From positions 1 to 7,947 of the IMG/VR virus record IMGVR_UViG_2713896907_000004: a stretch of DNA of 7,947 bases; one strand, written 5' to 3'. The notes beneath the pieces are model-generated. The model saw only the letters and a list, made by a program, of their open reading frames with translations. It did no database searches and was not told the DNA's origin. Source of the DNA: a virus (lineage: Duplodnaviria > Heunggongvirae > Uroviricota > Caudoviricetes). Position 1 is the first letter of the stretch, and each line of letters begins with the position of its first letter. This document shows positions 1,181 through 7,823 of this stretch, one piece after another. A program made the position numbers and the translations under genes.

Positions 1181-2617
1181 TCAGAATCCTCCTTTCTTCT
1201 TGGACTGCGGTTCCTCGCGTTCACGGCGGCGCATTTCAGCAGACTGTTGGTCTGTGTCATAAATAGCGCCATTTGCCTGTATGCAATACACCGTGCCGGT
1301 ATTGCCATGACGATTGAGGCGAAGGATTAGTTCGGTTTCACCAGGAGGAACGCTGTCATCAAAAGCACCTTCACGATGGATCCCCACCCAATAATCGCAA
1401 TCCTGTTCAATCTGCCCTGTATCTCGTGAGTCACTTGGTAATGGGCGTTTATTGGTTCGGCTTTCCAGTGCGCGGTTAAGCTGTGTCAGAAGCACAACAA
1501 CGCAATCAAGCTCTTTGGCAAGGTTCTTCAGTCCTTTGGTGATCATGCCGTAAGCAAGGTCGTTGCGATCGGCCTTTTCAGCGGTCATTAGTGTCAGGTA
1601 ATCGACCAGAATCATGCCAACACATCCTTTTTCTCGCTTGATTCGACGGCTTTCGCTGACGATTTGAGCCAGAGATAATCCCGGCGTGTCGTCGATGTAA
1701 AGCAGGTCGATTTCACTCAAGCGATTGGCTGTCTCGATCGCCCTGTTGAAGTCACCATCGTAATCACCCTGATAGCCGTCATCAGCGTCATTTGTCGCCG
1801 GAAGGTAAAAAATATTCGGGTTCACACCTGACTTCTGCCCTACCAGTTTTTCCAGTATCTGGTCACCTGGCATTTCAAGGCTGAACATCAGAGCGGGCTT
1901 TTTCTCATGCACTGCGCAGTTGATTGCCATCTGGCTGTATAGCGTCGTTTTCCCCATCTTAGGGCGAGCGCCAATGACAAACAGAGAGCCTTTCACCAGA
2001 CCTTTCGGTGACAGCATCCTGTCCAGCGATGGGATCCCTGTGCTCATTCCTCGTTGTTCGCCTGACGGGTCAAATCGCTTCTCAAGGTCGCTAACCCAGT
2101 CTTCCATGACCTCACCAAATGAGCGAAGGCCGCGACGCGATCCGGTTTTTGCATGGTCTGTCAGTTGCGTGAAAATCGACTGAATAGCTTCGTACTTCTG
2201 CGTTGCAGTCATTCCGTTGCGGGAATAGAGCAATTCCGTCGCTTCAGTCATGCGGTTGATGGCGTAGCGTTCCATTGCGGTTTCGCGAACCTGCATTGCA
2301 TAAGCAACGATGTTTGCTGCGCTTGGCGTGTTCTTTGCGATCTCAGCGATATAAGCAAAACCGCCAACAGACGCCGTTAACGATTTACGCTCCAGTTCAT
2401 CGAAAAGCGTCAGGCCATCTACTGGCTTTTGCTCACGGTGCATTCTGGTTATTTCTTCGAAAATGATTTTGTGTGGCCGGCTGTAAAATGAATCAGGCTT
2501 CAGCATCGCCAGAACCTTCTGGACGCGCTCACTGCTGTCATCATCCAGAAGCAATCCACCAATCACCGCCTGCTCTGCCTCGATGCTATGGGGCGGCGCA
2601 TAAAAATTATCGGTCAT
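1181..2617 (-). CDS. dnaB: DnaB-family replicative DNA helicase (phage-encoded, P22 gene 12-like)
   Basis: Track ORF 1181..2632(-). Start chosen at ATG 2617 ([25 protein letters not shown], preceded by GAGGGTG); the track Met at 2632 is the alternative. Classic DnaB N-terminus and Walker A GARPKMGKTT. Start overlaps the upstream gene's stop (ATGACCGATAA). Confidence 0.9.
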   Translation of the reverse strand: MTDNFYAPPHSIEAEQAVIGGLLLDDDSSERVQKVLAMLKPDSFYSRPHKIIFEEITRMHREQKPVDGLTLFDELERKSLTASVGGFAYIAEIAKNTPSAANIVAYAMQVRETAMERYAINRMTEATELLYSRNGMTATQKYEAIQSIFTQLTDHAKTGSRRGLRSFGEVMEDWVSDLEKRFDPSGEQRGMSTGIPSLDRMLSPKGLVKGSLFVIGARPKMGKTTLYSQMAINCAVHEKKPALMFSLEMPGDQILEKLVGQKSGVNPNIFYLPATNDADDGYQGDYDGDFNRAIETANRLSEIDLLYIDDTPGLSLAQIVSESRRIKREKGCVGMILVDYLTLMTAEKADRNDLAYGMITKGLKNLAKELDCVVVLLTQLNRALESRTNKRPLPSDSRDTGQIEQDCDYWVGIHREGAFDDSVPPGETELILRLNRHGNTGTVYCIQANGAIYDTDQQSAEMRRREREEPQSKKKGGF

Positions 2618-3506
2618 CGTGTTCACCCTCACGAACTTTCAGGTAGGTATTGTCGTTAAGCAGGAAATCAAATCCCTTTTTGTGCCAGACGGTTCCGCGC
2701 TGATGGTTTGGGCGCTCTTCGAACATCCATCGGCAATTTTCGCCTACGTAGCTCAAATAATTTCTCCAGTCCTGCATCGTGAACCCATGCCCGTCAAGCT
2801 GGCGGGTTATCACTCCGGCTTTGCGCCAGAACGTTCGGATCTGGTTTTTACGCTTGTCATTCAGTGCGCGGATTCTTGGCGCTTCAGGAAGGATTTCGTG
2901 GTAAGCATCGACAACATCCTGACAGCTGACGGGAGGTTTTTTCTTGTCAGACTTTTTGTCTGCTGTGGCACTCTCTAATACGTCAGTATTAGAGATAATA
3001 TTATTATATTCTTTATCTGTGGTAATTTGCTGGTAATCTGCTGGTACAGTATTGCTTACAGGCATTGGTATTGCTGGCTTTGAGGTGGTAATTTGCTGGT
3101 AATCTGCTGGTACAAAATTTGACTGATAATCGTCATATTTCTCTACCGAGAAAACTGAGAATTTACCGTGTGAAACCCAGTCAATCATGCCGAGTTTTTT
3201 GAACTTTCTAAGCAGGTACTGAACGCGATCTGGTTTGAGTCCTGTTTCAAACGCCAGAGAGTTTCTACCGCCAAGTAGCTTCCCTCTGCCTACCAGAATT
3301 TCTCCTGCGTCAGTCATTACATACTCAGGCGTATGCTTTGCTTTGAGGATTAAGTGAACCCACAGATGCGCTGCTTCTGCGTCCTTGTAAAACGGCACAT
3401 CCATAATTTTACGGTGCAGCAAGGCATACCCCTTACCGCTGCTTTGATGCGGTTGTTGTAGCCTTCTGGCCTCTCTGGCTTCGGCTAGATTAGATATGTT
3501 ACTCAT
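2607..3506 (-). CDS. Replication initiation protein (lambda O / P22 gp18 analogue)
   Basis: Track ORF 2607..3506(-). AAGGAG 7 nt upstream of the ATG at 3506. N-terminal winged-helix-like region, a central linker carrying the duplicated peptide [10 protein letters not shown], and a C-terminus resembling the conserved phage replication-protein C-terminal domain. Sits immediately upstream of the helicase. Confidence 0.8.
2972..3113. other. Putative origin of replication inside the initiator gene: AT-rich palindrome plus iteron-like direct repeats
   Basis: Two identical 29-bp direct repeats (3019-3047 and 3085-3113, gtggtaatttgctggtaatctgctggtac), each with GCTGGTAAT sub-repeats at about 11-bp spacing. 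Adjacent AT-rich stretch 2972-3016 holds a perfect 10-bp inverted repeat, tctctaatac-gtca-gtattagaga (2972-2995). Layout matches lambda ori inside O. Confidence 0.5.
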
Positions 3507-3645
3507 GACCTTTCTCCTTCTGCATCAGCTTCACTTTTTCCAACTCAGCCCGGAATCGACAAGGCTGCTTGAAGCTGGACAGGAAGCGATCACGTAGTAT
3601 GTGTTTGTGAATTTTGTCCTGGTAAGGACTGAGTTGTTTTGTCAT
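3499..3645 (-). CDS. Small hypothetical protein (48 aa) between cII and the initiator gene
   Basis: Not in the supplied track (too short). Hand translation from ATG 3645: [53 protein letters not shown] 7 nt upstream. Stop overlaps the initiator start (ATGAGTAA). Confidence 0.4.
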
Positions 3646-3654
3646 AATGACTCC

Positions 3655-3731
3655 TGTGGATTGATCCAGTAATTACCTCAGAACTCCATCTGGATTTGTT
3701 CAGAACGCTCGGTTGCCGCCGGGCGTTTTTT
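3655..3731 (+). ncRNA. oop: oop-like antisense RNA candidate (about 77 nt, antisense to the cII 3' end)
   Basis: Plus-strand extended -10 TGtCATAAT at 3640-3648 in the cII/initiator intergenic region, with a strong intrinsic terminator about 77 nt downstream inside the cII 3' end. Geometry as for lambda OOP. Start site is inferred, not observed. Confidence 0.4.
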
Positions 3732-3974
3732 ATTGGTTAGTCCATCAAGCGCATACTTAAAAGCCCTGCTAATCGGACTGATGTCTGATGCCATTCCAAA
3801 AGCACACAGAACCGAAGCAATAAATCTCCAGTCCGTTCTGCTTATCTTCGATTCATGACAGCCAATCATCTTTGCCAGACCGCGCTGGGTAAGCGTTGAC
3901 AGGTTGATAAGTAAATCTGTTTCTGCGCGATCAACGTCGCGCTGTGATAGTTTGCTGTAACTTGTTTGTTCCAT
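3678..3974 (-). CDS. cII: CII transcriptional activator (lambda CII family)
   Basis: Track ORF 3678..3974(-), 98 aa. C-terminal LTNKKRPAATERSEQIQMEF matches the lambda CII C-terminus as recalled. HTH-like ESKISRTDWRF in the middle. Sits between cro and the replication genes. Confidence 0.9.
   Translation of the reverse strand: MEQTSYSKLSQRDVDRAETDLLINLSTLTQRGLAKMIGCHESKISRTDWRFIASVLCAFGMASDISPISRAFKYALDGLTNKKRPAATERSEQIQMEF
3704..3731 (+). terminator. Rho-independent terminator on the strand antisense to cII
   Basis: Stem cgctcgg (3706-3712) / ccgggcg (3719-3725) with one G-U pair, 6-nt loop, extendable by two A-T pairs, followed by TTTTTTATT. Confidence 0.6.
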
Positions 3975-4080: not shown

Positions 4081-4308
4081 TTATGCAGCCAGAAGGTTCT
4101 TTTTGCTTATTTCAAGCATTTCGCTTGCTTGATATTTGCCACCAGAAATCTCTTCGATTTTTGATGCATATTTCGTTTTCCCAAAAAACTCAGTCTTAGG
4201 GAGGAAGCCGTTTTTAAGCCACTTATAGACAGCCCTTTCGCTAACTCCACAAGCCTTCGCAACTTCAGGGATGCCGACACCTTTAATCGGCTCATCAAGA
4301 TTTTGCAT
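4081..4308 (-). CDS. cro: Cro-like HTH regulator (first gene of the PR operon)
   Basis: Track ORF 4081..4341(-). Start chosen at internal ATG 4308 (MQNLDEPIKGVGIPEVAKACGVSERAVYKWLKNGFLP...), which has AAAAAGGG 8 nt upstream. The track ATG at 4341 falls inside the predicted PR -10. HTH motif present; divergent from cI. Confidence 0.7.
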   Translation of the reverse strand: MQNLDEPIKGVGIPEVAKACGVSERAVYKWLKNGFLPKTEFFGKTKYASKIEEISGGKYQASEMLEISKKNLLAA

Positions 4309-4320
4309 AGGAATACCCTT

Positions 4321-4393
4321 TTTCGTACTTTCAGTACGCATTATGATTGAACTGAAAGTTTTTGCAAGTGCTTTAGTATCGTACTCATGGTTC
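4321..4393. promoter_or_regulatory. OR-like operator/promoter region (PR leftward, PRM rightward)
   Basis: Minus-strand PR: -35 TTGCAA (plus 4362-4367), 16-bp spacer, -10 CATAAT (plus 4340-4345). Operator-like sites: cgtACTttcAGTacg palindrome (4324-4338), gaACTgaaAGTt (4349-4360), weaker taTCGTACtc (4377-4386). Possible PRM -10 TAGTAT (4374-4379) ends 7 nt before the cI ATG, which lacks a Shine-Dalgarno. Confidence 0.5.
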
Positions 4394-5094
4394 AGAATGA
4401 AAAAGTGCGCAAAGAATTCGCCCAGCGGCTAGCGCAAGCCTGTAAAGAAGCTGGTCTTGATGAACATGGTAGGGGGATGGCCATAGCCCGTGCCCTTTCT
4501 CTTTCGTCCAAAGGCGTTAGCAAATGGTTTAATGCTGAGTCTTTACCGCGTCAGGAAAAAATGAATGCGCTTGCGAAATTTCTAAACGTTGATGTTGTTT
4601 GGCTTCAGCACGGCACTTCGTTAAATGGAGCGAATGATGAAGATACTCTTTCATTTGTTGGCAAATTAAAAAAAGGGTTAGTGCGCGTGGTTGGTGAGGC
4701 AATTCTTGGTGTTGATGGTGCCATCGAGATGACCGAAGAGCGCGATGGGTGGCTCAAGATTTATAGCGATGATCCAGATGCCTTTGGTCTTCGTGTGAAA
4801 GGAGACAGCATGTGGCCCAGAATAAAATCAGGAGAATATGTACTCATTGAGCCTAACACCAAAGTATTCCCGGGTGATGAGGTGTTTGTCAGAACCGTTG
4901 AAGGACACAACATGATTAAGGTTCTTGGCTATGACAGAGATGGAGAATACCAATTTACAAGCATTAACCAGGACCACAGGCCTATAACGTTGCCTTATCA
5001 TCAAGTAGCAAAGGTGGAGTATGTGGCTGGTATTCTGAAGCAATCTCGTCATCTGGATGACATCGAGGCAAGGGAGTGGCTGAAAAATTCGTGA
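4387..5094 (+). CDS. cI: CI-like prophage repressor (N-terminal HTH, C-terminal S24 LexA-like peptidase)
   Basis: Track ORF 4387..5094(+), 235 aa. HTH near the N-terminus (GMAIARALSLSSKGVSKWFN). C-terminal GDSMWP serine motif and downstream Lys (NMIKVLG) typical of the S24 autocleavage domain. Divergent from cro with the operator region between. Confidence 0.9.
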   Translation: MVQNEKVRKEFAQRLAQACKEAGLDEHGRGMAIARALSLSSKGVSKWFNAESLPRQEKMNALAKFLNVDVVWLQHGTSLNGANDEDTLSFVGKLKKGLVRVVGEAILGVDGAIEMTEERDGWLKIYSDDPDAFGLRVKGDSMWPRIKSGEYVLIEPNTKVFPGDEVFVRTVEGHNMIKVLGYDRDGEYQFTSINQDHRPITLPYHQVAKVEYVAGILKQSRHLDDIEAREWLKNS

Positions 5095-5170: not shown

Positions 5171-6217
5171 ATGTCAGCGATTGATCAACCTGCGCAATAT
5201 GTTATCAAGTCAGAAGACGACTTTGTATCTTTTGTAACAGAAATGCTCGGAAGGAAGGATATCGACTCAAGCGACTTCACATTCCCTAGCGTAGTTTTCA
5301 GTGGATGGCCAAAGATCAATATTAATGTAAAAGGCGATCCAAATAGATATAATTCTTCATTGACTGCGTCAATGCTTTTTGGTATGGCAGAGCTTACGCA
5401 TGAAATACAAAAAGCATTTACGGTAGTCAGTCACAGCACTCATAATCGGCAGAAGCTAAAAGATGCAGAGAAAGGTTTGCTGGATATTGTCTACCGAATA
5501 AGCGAAGGCTCAAGCCAAGCGGATGGTGACTCAGATCCGATTGTAAACGGAGTGGTGACAGTGTTAACTCAAGCGATAGGCAAAATGACAGGAAGGCAAG
5601 CACTATGCGCCGTCGCCGCTATCGTCTTAGCTGCCAGCACGGTAGGCTATAAGTGGATCAATGAGTACTACGAAACACAGCGACATGACCAAGATTCTCA
5701 GGTGCAATTGGTGGAAAAAAGCACCAAAGCGGTAAACGAAGCACAAGACAATGTGCTCAAGTTGTTGATTAGCGGTCAAACAAACATTAGCAGAGAGGTT
5801 CTGGCTCACGGCGAGGATGGTAAAAGCAAGTTGCTTAAAAAGCTTGCTCAAGACTCGTCAGTTGAGAAGGTAACAATTGGTCAGAGAGTGGTAAATAGAG
5901 AACAGTTGAATACCTTAAACCAAAGGCAATCAATTGATCGAAAAAAGGAAACCAGAAGAGATAACTTTTATGTCACGGGCGTTCGTCGCTCGGGAGAAAC
6001 AAATCAGGACATAAATATTGACGTCACAAGGGTTTCAAATGGTGAATCTTTCACCATAAAAACCTCAGCCGACATAACATCTACTGATGAGCTTCTTGAG
6101 TTTTTGAATGCTGTAGCCAAAGAATCAACTGTTGAAATTTCATACCTAGAGGTTGTAGAAAATGGACACATTTCAACAGGACAATTGATAAATATATTCC
6201 CCAGCGAACCAGAGTGA
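5171..6217 (+). CDS. Hypothetical membrane protein (348 aa) in the rexAB-equivalent slot; candidate exclusion/defence moron
   Basis: Track ORF 5171..6217(+). AAGGA 6 nt upstream of the ATG. Same strand as cI, 76 bp downstream, with no terminator between. Visibly AT-richer than neighbours. One central hydrophobic segment (ALCAVAAIVLAASTVGY) and a charged Q/K/E-rich C-terminal half. No family recognised. Terminator follows. Confidence 0.8.
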   Translation: MSAIDQPAQYVIKSEDDFVSFVTEMLGRKDIDSSDFTFPSVVFSGWPKININVKGDPNRYNSSLTASMLFGMAELTHEIQKAFTVVSHSTHNRQKLKDAEKGLLDIVYRISEGSSQADGDSDPIVNGVVTVLTQAIGKMTGRQALCAVAAIVLAASTVGYKWINEYYETQRHDQDSQVQLVEKSTKAVNEAQDNVLKLLISGQTNISREVLAHGEDGKSKLLKKLAQDSSVEKVTIGQRVVNREQLNTLNQRQSIDRKKETRRDNFYVTGVRRSGETNQDINIDVTRVSNGESFTIKTSADITSTDELLEFLNAVAKESTVEISYLEVVENGHISTGQLINIFPSEPE

Positions 6218-6681: not shown

Positions 6682-6801
6682 ATGCTGGAAATTATCACCA
6701 ACCCAATTCTCGGTGGGGCAATCATCACTTTCGCAATCGGCATCGGATTCACTATCTGGTCTGAAGTAGATGACTGGATGTGGGAGCGCAAAAACAAATA
6801 A
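6682..6801 (+). CDS. Small hydrophobic peptide (39 aa, single predicted TM helix) in the N leader
   Basis: ATG at 6682 with GGAG 8 nt upstream. Product MLEIITNPILGGAIITFAIGIGFTIWSEVDDWMWERKNK: hydrophobic core then a charged Trp-rich tail. Inside the longer track ORF 6616..6801. Lies between nutL and N. Confidence 0.4.
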   Translation: MLEIITNPILGGAIITFAIGIGFTIWSEVDDWMWERKNK

Positions 6802-6841
6802 TAATCGACACACATTCATGTGTGTCTTCACGGAGGTCATC

Positions 6842-7150
6842 ATGACGGTTATCGTATACGGAAAATCAACATTTGCAGGAAATGCCAAAACTCGCCGTCA
6901 TGAGCGGCGCAGAAAGCTGGCTATCGAGCGTGATTCCATCTGCAACATCATCGATTCGATCTTCGGCACAGACAGTGAGGAAGCTGTTCAGGAAGAACCG
7001 AGAAAGCGTTTAAGCCTTTCTGAAAAAGCAATATCACTCGGCATCATTAGTAAATCAAATACAGATGCGAATGGCGGAAGCGTTTGCCTGCCCGAAGTTG
7101 CACTGTATGCTGCTGGTTACAGGTCAATGAAATCAATTACGGCGAGATAG
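6842..7150 (+). CDS. N: N-like transcription antiterminator (P22 gene 24 type, arginine-rich motif)
   Basis: Internal start of track ORF 6770..7150 at Met 25 (ATG 6842), with GGAGG 5 nt upstream. N-terminus MTVIVYGKSTFAGNAKTRRHERRRKLAIERD carries the arginine-rich boxB-binding motif of P22 N as recalled. Cognate boxB present in both nutL and nutR. Confidence 0.85.
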   Translation: MTVIVYGKSTFAGNAKTRRHERRRKLAIERDSICNIIDSIFGTDSEEAVQEEPRKRLSLSEKAISLGIISKSNTDANGGSVCLPEVALYAAGYRSMKSITAR

Positions 7151-7552: not shown

Positions 7553-7639
7553 ATGGAAGAAGAATTTGAAGAGTTCGAAGAGCATCCGCAGGATGTGATG
7601 GAACAATACCAGGACTATCCGTATGACTACGACTATTGA
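7553..7639 (+). CDS. Very small acidic peptide (28 aa), possibly coupled to the next ORF
   Basis: ATG 7553 with GAGGTGA 4 nt upstream. Hand translation MEEEFEEFEEHPQDVMEQYQDYPYDYDY. Overlaps the start of the next ORF by 17 nt. Could be coding or only a coupling leader. Confidence 0.3.
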   Translation: MEEEFEEFEEHPQDVMEQYQDYPYDYDY

Positions 7640-7823
7640 TAAAAATCAATGGTGTGGACAATTCAAACGATGCAATGGATGCAAGCTGCAATCGGAATGC
7701 ATGGTTAAGCCTGAAGAAATGTTTCCTGTAATGGAAGATGGGAAATATGTCGATAAATGGGCAATACGAACTACGGCAATGATTGCCAGAGAACTTGGTA
7801 AACAGAAAAACAAGGCTGCCTGA
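7623..7823 (+). CDS. Hypothetical Cys-rich small protein (66 aa, CxxxxxCxxCxxxxxC)
   Basis: Track ORF 7623..7823(+). Start overlaps the preceding acidic ORF. Four Cys in CGQFKRCNGCKLQSEC suggest a zinc ribbon. Followed by a terminator. Confidence 0.5.
   Translation: MTTTIDKNQWCGQFKRCNGCKLQSECMVKPEEMFPVMEDGKYVDKWAIRTTAMIARELGKQKNKAA

Follow-up and report, generated by a model that had tools for sequence, protein, structure and literature searches.

What occupies the gap between cII and the replication initiator gene of a lambdoid phage, and does the small open reading frame (ORF) found there belong with the antisense RNA unit on one side of it or with the initiator on the other? The question is raised by positions 3499-3731 of a 7,947-nt stretch of viral DNA (IMG/VR record IMGVR_UViG_2713896907_000004; Caudoviricetes), here called the window, in which this region is the junction from the immunity/lysogeny module to the replication module of a lambdoid phage. 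A preliminary description, made from the letters alone, had placed there an oop-like antisense RNA unit and a 48-amino-acid ORF, for which it offered two readings, a genuine small protein and a coupling leader. The arrangement proves to be already known, and consists of textbook OOP RNA together with a catalogued phage gene, orf48. We consider it highly probable that the region holds a pO-oop-tO unit and, as the first cistron of the replication module, orf48 translationally coupled to the initiator.

The antisense RNA and its promoter

The plus strand at 3656-3732 is identical to lambda OOP RNA at 74 of 77 bases, and by homology with the lambda RNA the ends of a 77-nt antisense transcript can be placed at G3656 and near 3732. 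The three substitutions fall in the 5′ stem region. The predicted minimum free energy (MFE) fold, at -28.1 kcal/mol (z -4.09 vs dinucleotide shuffles), consists of a 5′ stem-loop and a terminator hairpin, and the lambda RNA folds in the same way, also with a z of about -4. The segment of complementarity would take in the final 55 nt of cII (3678-3732), stop codon included, plus a 22-nt spacer; the lambda RNA has an equal 55-nt overlap with the 3′ end of its cII (PMC3349717). Its intrinsic terminator, tO (3702-3731, plus strand), lies within the 3′ end of cII and comprises a T6 run and a hairpin at 3702-3729, which has a 12-bp stem with six G-C pairs and a GCCG loop and is followed by TTATTGG. 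Across about 100 related loci at least nine terminator sequences occur at this position, all with a strong hairpin and a T-run, and they sit 64-82 nt downstream of the same -10 element. The terminator also appears in a consensus fold, where compensatory changes are seen in 4 of 10 pairs.

A scan of the whole window with Rfam 15 gave no match at E <= 1. Evidently Rfam has no OOP family, because even a sequence 96% identical to lambda OOP goes undetected, and the homology was therefore set by alignment with lambda. It is this homology, not motif counts, that places the unit beyond chance, and on that ground the plus-strand unit can be called an ortholog of lambda OOP RNA. The preliminary description had thus read the extended -10 antisense to cII, the strong terminator inside cII and the geometry and size of lambda OOP correctly. 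Its further statement that the antisense RNA unit overlaps the 48-amino-acid ORF holds for the promoter only: the transcript itself would begin 11 nt upstream of the ATG, beside the Shine-Dalgarno (SD) sequence, leaving the coding sequence clear.

That promoter, pO, carries the extended -10 element TGTCATAAT (TGt CATAAT; 3640-3648, plus strand), which is unchanged across lambda, HK022, P22, SEN22 and an Erwinia phage. The pattern TGNCATAAT is matched once in the window where 0.29 matches are expected by chance, so that the motif by itself is weak evidence. In lambda the pO -10 was defined by mutation as ATTAT (38684-38688, r strand) and includes the start codon of gene O (PMC3349717). A putative -35 element, the weak hexamer TGGTAA (3/6 matches; 3620-3625, plus strand), lies 17 nt 5′ of the -10 and within orf48 codons 7-9; the lambda -35 region reads TTGAGT instead.

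The ATG of orf48 is the complement of CAT in CATAAT (3643-3645), and its SD sequence, AGGAG (3651-3655, minus strand), stands five nt before the ATG and adjoins the 5′ end of the OOP-complementary segment. The whole cassette, CAGGAGTCATTATGACAAA, is identical between the window and lambda. In lambda its ATG begins gene O, whereas in the window it begins orf48, and the two sequences part after the third codon. The start codon therefore does lie in the antisense -10, as had been pointed out, but this is no difference from lambda: in both phages the gene that comes next to the right has its start codon within the -10, and on comparison of the two sequences the feature is a conserved junction cassette common to lambda and not a peculiarity of orf48. 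A 14-bp palindrome, GTCCTGGTAAGGAC (3616-3629), spans the pO -35/spacer region and orf48 codons 6-10 and was returned as terminator-like by a scan. It is kept in close relatives and broken in four other loci (L008, L009, L011 and L100), and is probably not functional for that reason.

The mechanism of OOP has been worked out in lambda (PMC3349717; PMC12197685). Sequences resembling OOP have been reported for Shiga toxin (Stx) phages (PMC5488031), and in P22, where orf48 has the same position, small-RNA sequencing found a 63-nt oop RNA at 14024-14086, 14 nt from the ATG of ORF48 (PMC13397905). By analogy with these phages, OOP would be made and would act on cII in the window phage. pO would fire leftward relative to the pR operon and give a 77-nt self-terminating RNA; this would pair with the pR transcript, RNase III would cut the duplex and, if lambda is a guide, the cII mRNA would be destabilized, with less CII favoring lytic growth. 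On the same model orf48 would use the SD/ATG cassette that is gene O's in lambda, so that its start codon falls within the pO -10 and its SD abuts the OOP-complementary segment. In the start region of orf48 the duplex of OOP and mRNA would reach as far as position -11, as happens for lambda O, and may affect translation of the downstream gene.

orf48 as a member of the DUF2740 family

orf48 (3499-3645, minus strand) encodes a protein of 48 amino acids and 5.9 kDa, with an isoelectric point of 9.9 and a net charge of about +6. Residues 6-48 match positions 1-43 of the 43-position Pfam profile PF10872 (DUF2740) at 97 bits, against a cutoff of 27 (E 4.8e-28), and the protein also matches PHROG 1913. 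Amino-acid identity is 98% to orf48 of HK022 and 83% to ORF48 of P22. The HK022 record U02466 (AAB60271) carries the annotation 'orf48, sequence well conserved in phage P22, unknown', while the P22 record AF217253 (AAF75027) names the gene ORF48. RefSeq gives the protein as 'DUF2740 family protein'. Both relatives resemble the window gene in length, in their slot between oop and the initiator and in the ATGAGTAA overlap with the initiator. The distance from the cII stop (3678) to the initiator ATG (3506) is 171 nt, so that the gap of about 170 bp, its basic 48-amino-acid ORF and the good ribosome-binding site had all been described accurately.

A review of lambdoid phages recognized cII-oop-orf-O-P as the common layout, in which lambda is 'naturally missing' orf48 (Hayes et al., 2012; PMC3349717, Figs S1-S2), and the window is an instance of it. 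An ORF lies between oop and the initiator in HK022, Stx phages, P22, ES18, HK620, ST64T, Sf6 and others, while HK97 and some other phages have a different small ORF in this slot (PMC3349717). Part of the 237-bp region is present in 1855 of 5426 complete E. coli genomes. The family is very small: it forms 45 clusters at 90% identity and, among 1.84 billion representative sequences, only 17 at 50% identity. In an exhaustive profile search of those representatives all 17 were the same family or fragments of it, with no distant relatives; the one repeat protein returned, P0051, was a spurious match. Many GenBank and RefSeq phage records give members as 'tail protein', a label carried over from PHROG 1913 that neither position nor synteny supports. 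The window protein differs from nearly all others in having Cys29 (TGT, 3559-3561) where the family has Gly (GGT), a change shared by 3 of 97 loci and by phage phi367 and located in the predicted turn between two helices.

Coding constraint was assessed with homologs from phages and prophages of E. coli, Salmonella, Citrobacter, Enterobacter, Atlantibacter, Pseudescherichia, Shimwellia and Erwinia. Pairwise ratios of nonsynonymous to synonymous substitution rates (dN/dS) were 0.18-0.8 over the whole gene; the window and Erwinia phage proteins, for example, share 58% amino-acid identity at a dS of about 1.2 and a dN of 0.32. In codons 13-41, which are clear of the overlaps with pO and with the initiator SD, dN/dS was 0.08-0.34, and the synonymous excess was significant in four of six comparisons (binomial p 0.0004-0.012). 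The orf48 frame is the sole frame open in 12 of 12 homologs, the other five having stops in most. Length changes (a 6-codon insertion, a 1-codon deletion and a 10-codon duplication) are in frame. The most distant DUF2740 members retain the motifs HKxI[LI]RD[RQ] and RxE[LW][ED]xVK while their C-termini vary. Judged by these patterns, orf48 is a real coding gene under purifying selection, which bears out the suggestion that the ORF might be a small protein; conservation in related phages had been named as a check.

AlphaFold, run on a 22-sequence alignment, models the protein as a two-helix hairpin (helices 7-25 and 28-44; mean pLDDT, the predicted local distance difference test score, 79.7). 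A PDB profile search with orf48 returned a chance match only (E 0.59), and scans with PADLOC and NCBIfam gave no match. Searches of the available literature found no functional study of DUF2740 or orf48 and no proteomic or ribosome profiling (Ribo-seq) report of the peptide; a preprint on P22 SieA indicates that the orf48 region is dispensable for prophage maintenance. Two proteins of like name were set aside. 'orf48:gnarl1' (Silas et al., bioRxiv 10.1101/2023.04.06.535777) is a different protein (MTEQDQRLKQFDEK...) found in lytic phages; the DUF2740 motif is absent from the supplements of that work, and the match in number is coincidental. The lambda 'Orf48' of the lambda interactome paper (PMC3224144) is not the window gene either, because lambda lacks orf48.

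Association with the initiator and competing explanations

On the initiator side the stop codon of orf48 overlaps the start of the initiator gene, as the preliminary description had noted, in the sequence ATGAGTAA (3499-3506, minus strand; TAA 3499-3501, ATG 3504-3506). The initiator SD, AAGGAG (3514-3519, minus strand), lies seven nt before its ATG and within orf48 codons 43-44. In 96 of 97 loci an initiator ORF begins 8 nt ahead of the stop of orf48, with the 12-mer GGTCATGAGTAA in 95 and CATCATGGATAA in one; SEN22 is only a seeming exception, the start of its initiator having been annotated too late. Even in the two most distant members, at loci L100 and L102, DUF2740 overlaps the initiator and a DnaB-like helicase comes next. 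The linked initiators themselves fall into two N-terminal classes without detectable mutual similarity (BLASTP E 1.7) and at least three C-terminal classes, and they precede differing helicase or loader genes. DUF2740 is not specific to one initiator type.

On the other side, the end of cII lies 32-36 nt upstream of DUF2740 in most loci, but in three an extra gene of 168-249 amino acids splits cII/oop from DUF2740 (L009, 2498-3004; L010, 2455-2991; L102, 2255-3004), and in all three DUF2740 remains joined to the initiator. No Pfam match to these inserted genes is on record, and the slot between cII/oop and DUF2740 looks like a hotspot at which accessory genes are inserted. The CATAAT/SD/ATG cassette of L009 starts the inserted gene and not DUF2740. 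At one further locus, in Salmonella phage PSP2-22 (L006; ON886116, 1938-2408), the DUF2740 frame runs on into an ORF that bears the annotation DUF4752 family protein, and no initiator follows; that genome, whose record is flagged UNVERIFIED_ORG, is probably rearranged or misassembled. The junction of a lambda/P22 hybrid falls inside pO (Hayes et al., 2012; PMC3349717), so that orf48 travels with genes 18-12. Since DUF2740 stays with the initiator when its neighbors change, it is to be counted with the replication module, as its first cistron, and does not belong to the oop unit.

The overlap of stop and start alone makes termination-reinitiation coupling of orf48 and the initiator plausible. 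Translation of orf48 would stop 5 nt past the initiator AUG and ribosomes would be handed to the initiator start, in addition to those recruited by its own SD. The arrangement resembles ATGA/TAATG-type coupled operons of phages and bacteria in that the upstream stop follows the downstream AUG by 5 nt and the SD of the second gene sits inside the first ORF. It differs from them in that coupling is predicted here, and masking of the initiator start by RNA structure, which MFE folds suggest, has no further support in the window.

The ORF could be nothing but a coupling device, as had also been suggested, a mere leader or spacer whose peptide has no function. This is the main rival explanation, and although we think it unlikely it deserves some weight. 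The overlap of stop and start is nearly invariant and the initiator SD sits within orf48, as expected of a leader. Moreover, in the MFE fold of the mRNA the SD and AUG of the initiator pair with orf48 codons 16-25, the SD-AUG region is paired with orf48-internal sequence in 14 of 14 homologs, and the pairing is kept in 83% of alignment cells vs 35-62% in slid registers, most columns being invariant. The covariation of this long-range helix does not, however, exceed that of shuffled alignments (253/500), and the structural cost of opening the initiator start is uneven: it lies far above codon-shuffled controls in the Erwinia phage, L018 and L102 (z 3.1-5.7; three of eight homologs), but is ordinary in the window (z 0.57), P22, L008, L019 and L100 (z 0.4-1.0). 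A pure leader would also have no need of a constant length of 46-48 amino acids, and it would not account for the low dN/dS of the central codons, clear of both overlaps, or for protein motifs that distant members keep while their nucleotides and C-termini diverge.

The same constraint bears on the notion that the ORF is not a gene at all, its frame being open by accident in DNA that is kept as upstream sequence of pO and as a recombination 'linker' joining mosaic modules. The segment is indeed almost unchanged, while the cII and initiator modules on either side of it vary, a highly conserved 33-bp stretch covers part of oop and pO (Hayes et al., 2012; PMC3349717), and the pO -35 region lies within coding sequence. 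An incidental frame would nonetheless have to explain the synonymous excess, its own maintenance at 58-65% amino-acid identity with saturated dS, the in-frame insertions and deletions, stops in the other five frames of most homologs, and the persistence of the ORF apart from pO/oop in L009, L010 and L102; we find this hardly credible. A role in the lysis-lysogeny circuit, for example in shielding CII from FtsH as cIII does or in modulating OOP or cII, would suit the position of orf48 beside cII/oop in most loci and a small, amphipathic, helical peptide like cIII. A superficial likeness to cIII (LRD...QPG) was followed up and rejected: comparison with the cIII profile by hhalign gave a probability of 0.56% (E 0.1), and there was no Pfam cIII match. 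DUF2740 keeps with the initiator, not with cII, where the two are separated, as it does at the lambda/P22 junction inside pO, and a function of this kind appears very improbable.

We therefore return to orf48 as a coupled first cistron of the replication module, against which several observations have to be set. A consensus promoter scan of the window missed pO, because its poor -35 matches at 3/6 only and the threshold was >=4/6 per hexamer. Coupling may be dispensable, because the initiator has a good SD of its own. The orf48 protein is identical in 81 of 97 loci, and recent recombination, not selection, could account for much of the conservation that E. coli phages show at the nucleotide level. 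Replication proceeds without orf48 in lambda, 434 and 21, and the gene is therefore not essential to this type of module. A Foldseek search of the orf48 model against PDB and BFVD found nothing and gave no clue to a binding partner, and both OOP and the orf48 product of the window are predicted from sequence.

With these points weighed, DUF2740 probably serves the replication module as a small, basic, helical accessory protein whose translation is coupled to that of the initiator. We infer that orf48 is translated and coupled to the initiator and that its peptide has a part in replication initiation or in events close to it. Its target is likely to be a host or generic factor and not one specific initiator domain, given that the initiators linked to it are unrelated in type. 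Tentatively, and with only a modest chance of being right, one may go further and suppose that translated, functional DUF2740 tunes replication initiation or the host replication machinery, for example by adjusting the activity or loading of whichever initiator comes next, and that OOP co-regulates replication and cII. If that view of DUF2740 were true, co-regulation by OOP would be expected because the orf48 SD abuts the segment with which OOP pairs.

The early region and the place of DUF2740 in it

Taken as a whole, the 7.9-kb window represents a lambdoid early region in reverse orientation. Its best phage matches, Stx2 phage 86, VT2-Sakai and phi419, cover only 53-60% of it (97-98% identity). 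The phage is a mosaic, akin to Stx-converting phages, HK022 and P22. On the minus strand lie a cro-like gene (4081-4341), cII (3678-3974; 98 amino acids; Pfam Phage_CII, E 7.8e-35; PHROG 191), the O-like replication initiator (2607-3506; 299 amino acids; PHROG 345 'replication initiation O-like', E 2.7e-87), the DnaB-like helicase that follows it (1181-2632) and NinB. The plus strand carries a cI-like repressor (4387-5094) and an N antiterminator with a P22-type arginine-rich motif (6770-7150; Pfam N_peptide, E 1.3e-36).

The initiator has internal iteron-like repeats: two direct repeats of 35 nt, 94% identical (3019-3053 and 3085-3119), lie within its gene, are composed of GGTAAT(T/C)TGCTGGTA sub-repeats and encode a repeated peptide. 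They are most likely origin iterons. Between the repressor and the antiterminator, in the rexAB/sieB 'moron' position, lies an ORF of 348 amino acids (5171-6217, plus strand) that gave no match in Pfam and PADLOC scans and is a candidate prophage-expressed exclusion or defense gene. Two anti-restriction functions are also present in these 8 kb, Ral (7623-7823; E 1.2e-47) and a Lar-like restriction-alleviation protein (630-1073; E 1.1e-9).

Clearly, nothing in the arrangement of the junction is new. OOP is a 40-year-old textbook antisense RNA, orf48 stands in the GenBank records of P22 and HK022, and the oop-orf-O layout was reviewed in 2012. The interest that remains is practical and lies in DUF2740, a family in which no member has an assigned function. 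It occurs in many Stx phages as well as in about one third of the complete E. coli genomes, and is widely mislabeled as a tail protein by way of PHROG 1913. Genetic work on orf48 must reckon with a start codon that is part of the pO -10. DUF2740 is to be seen as a very common, strictly syntenic small gene under selection that heads the replication module of Stx-converting and P22-like phages.

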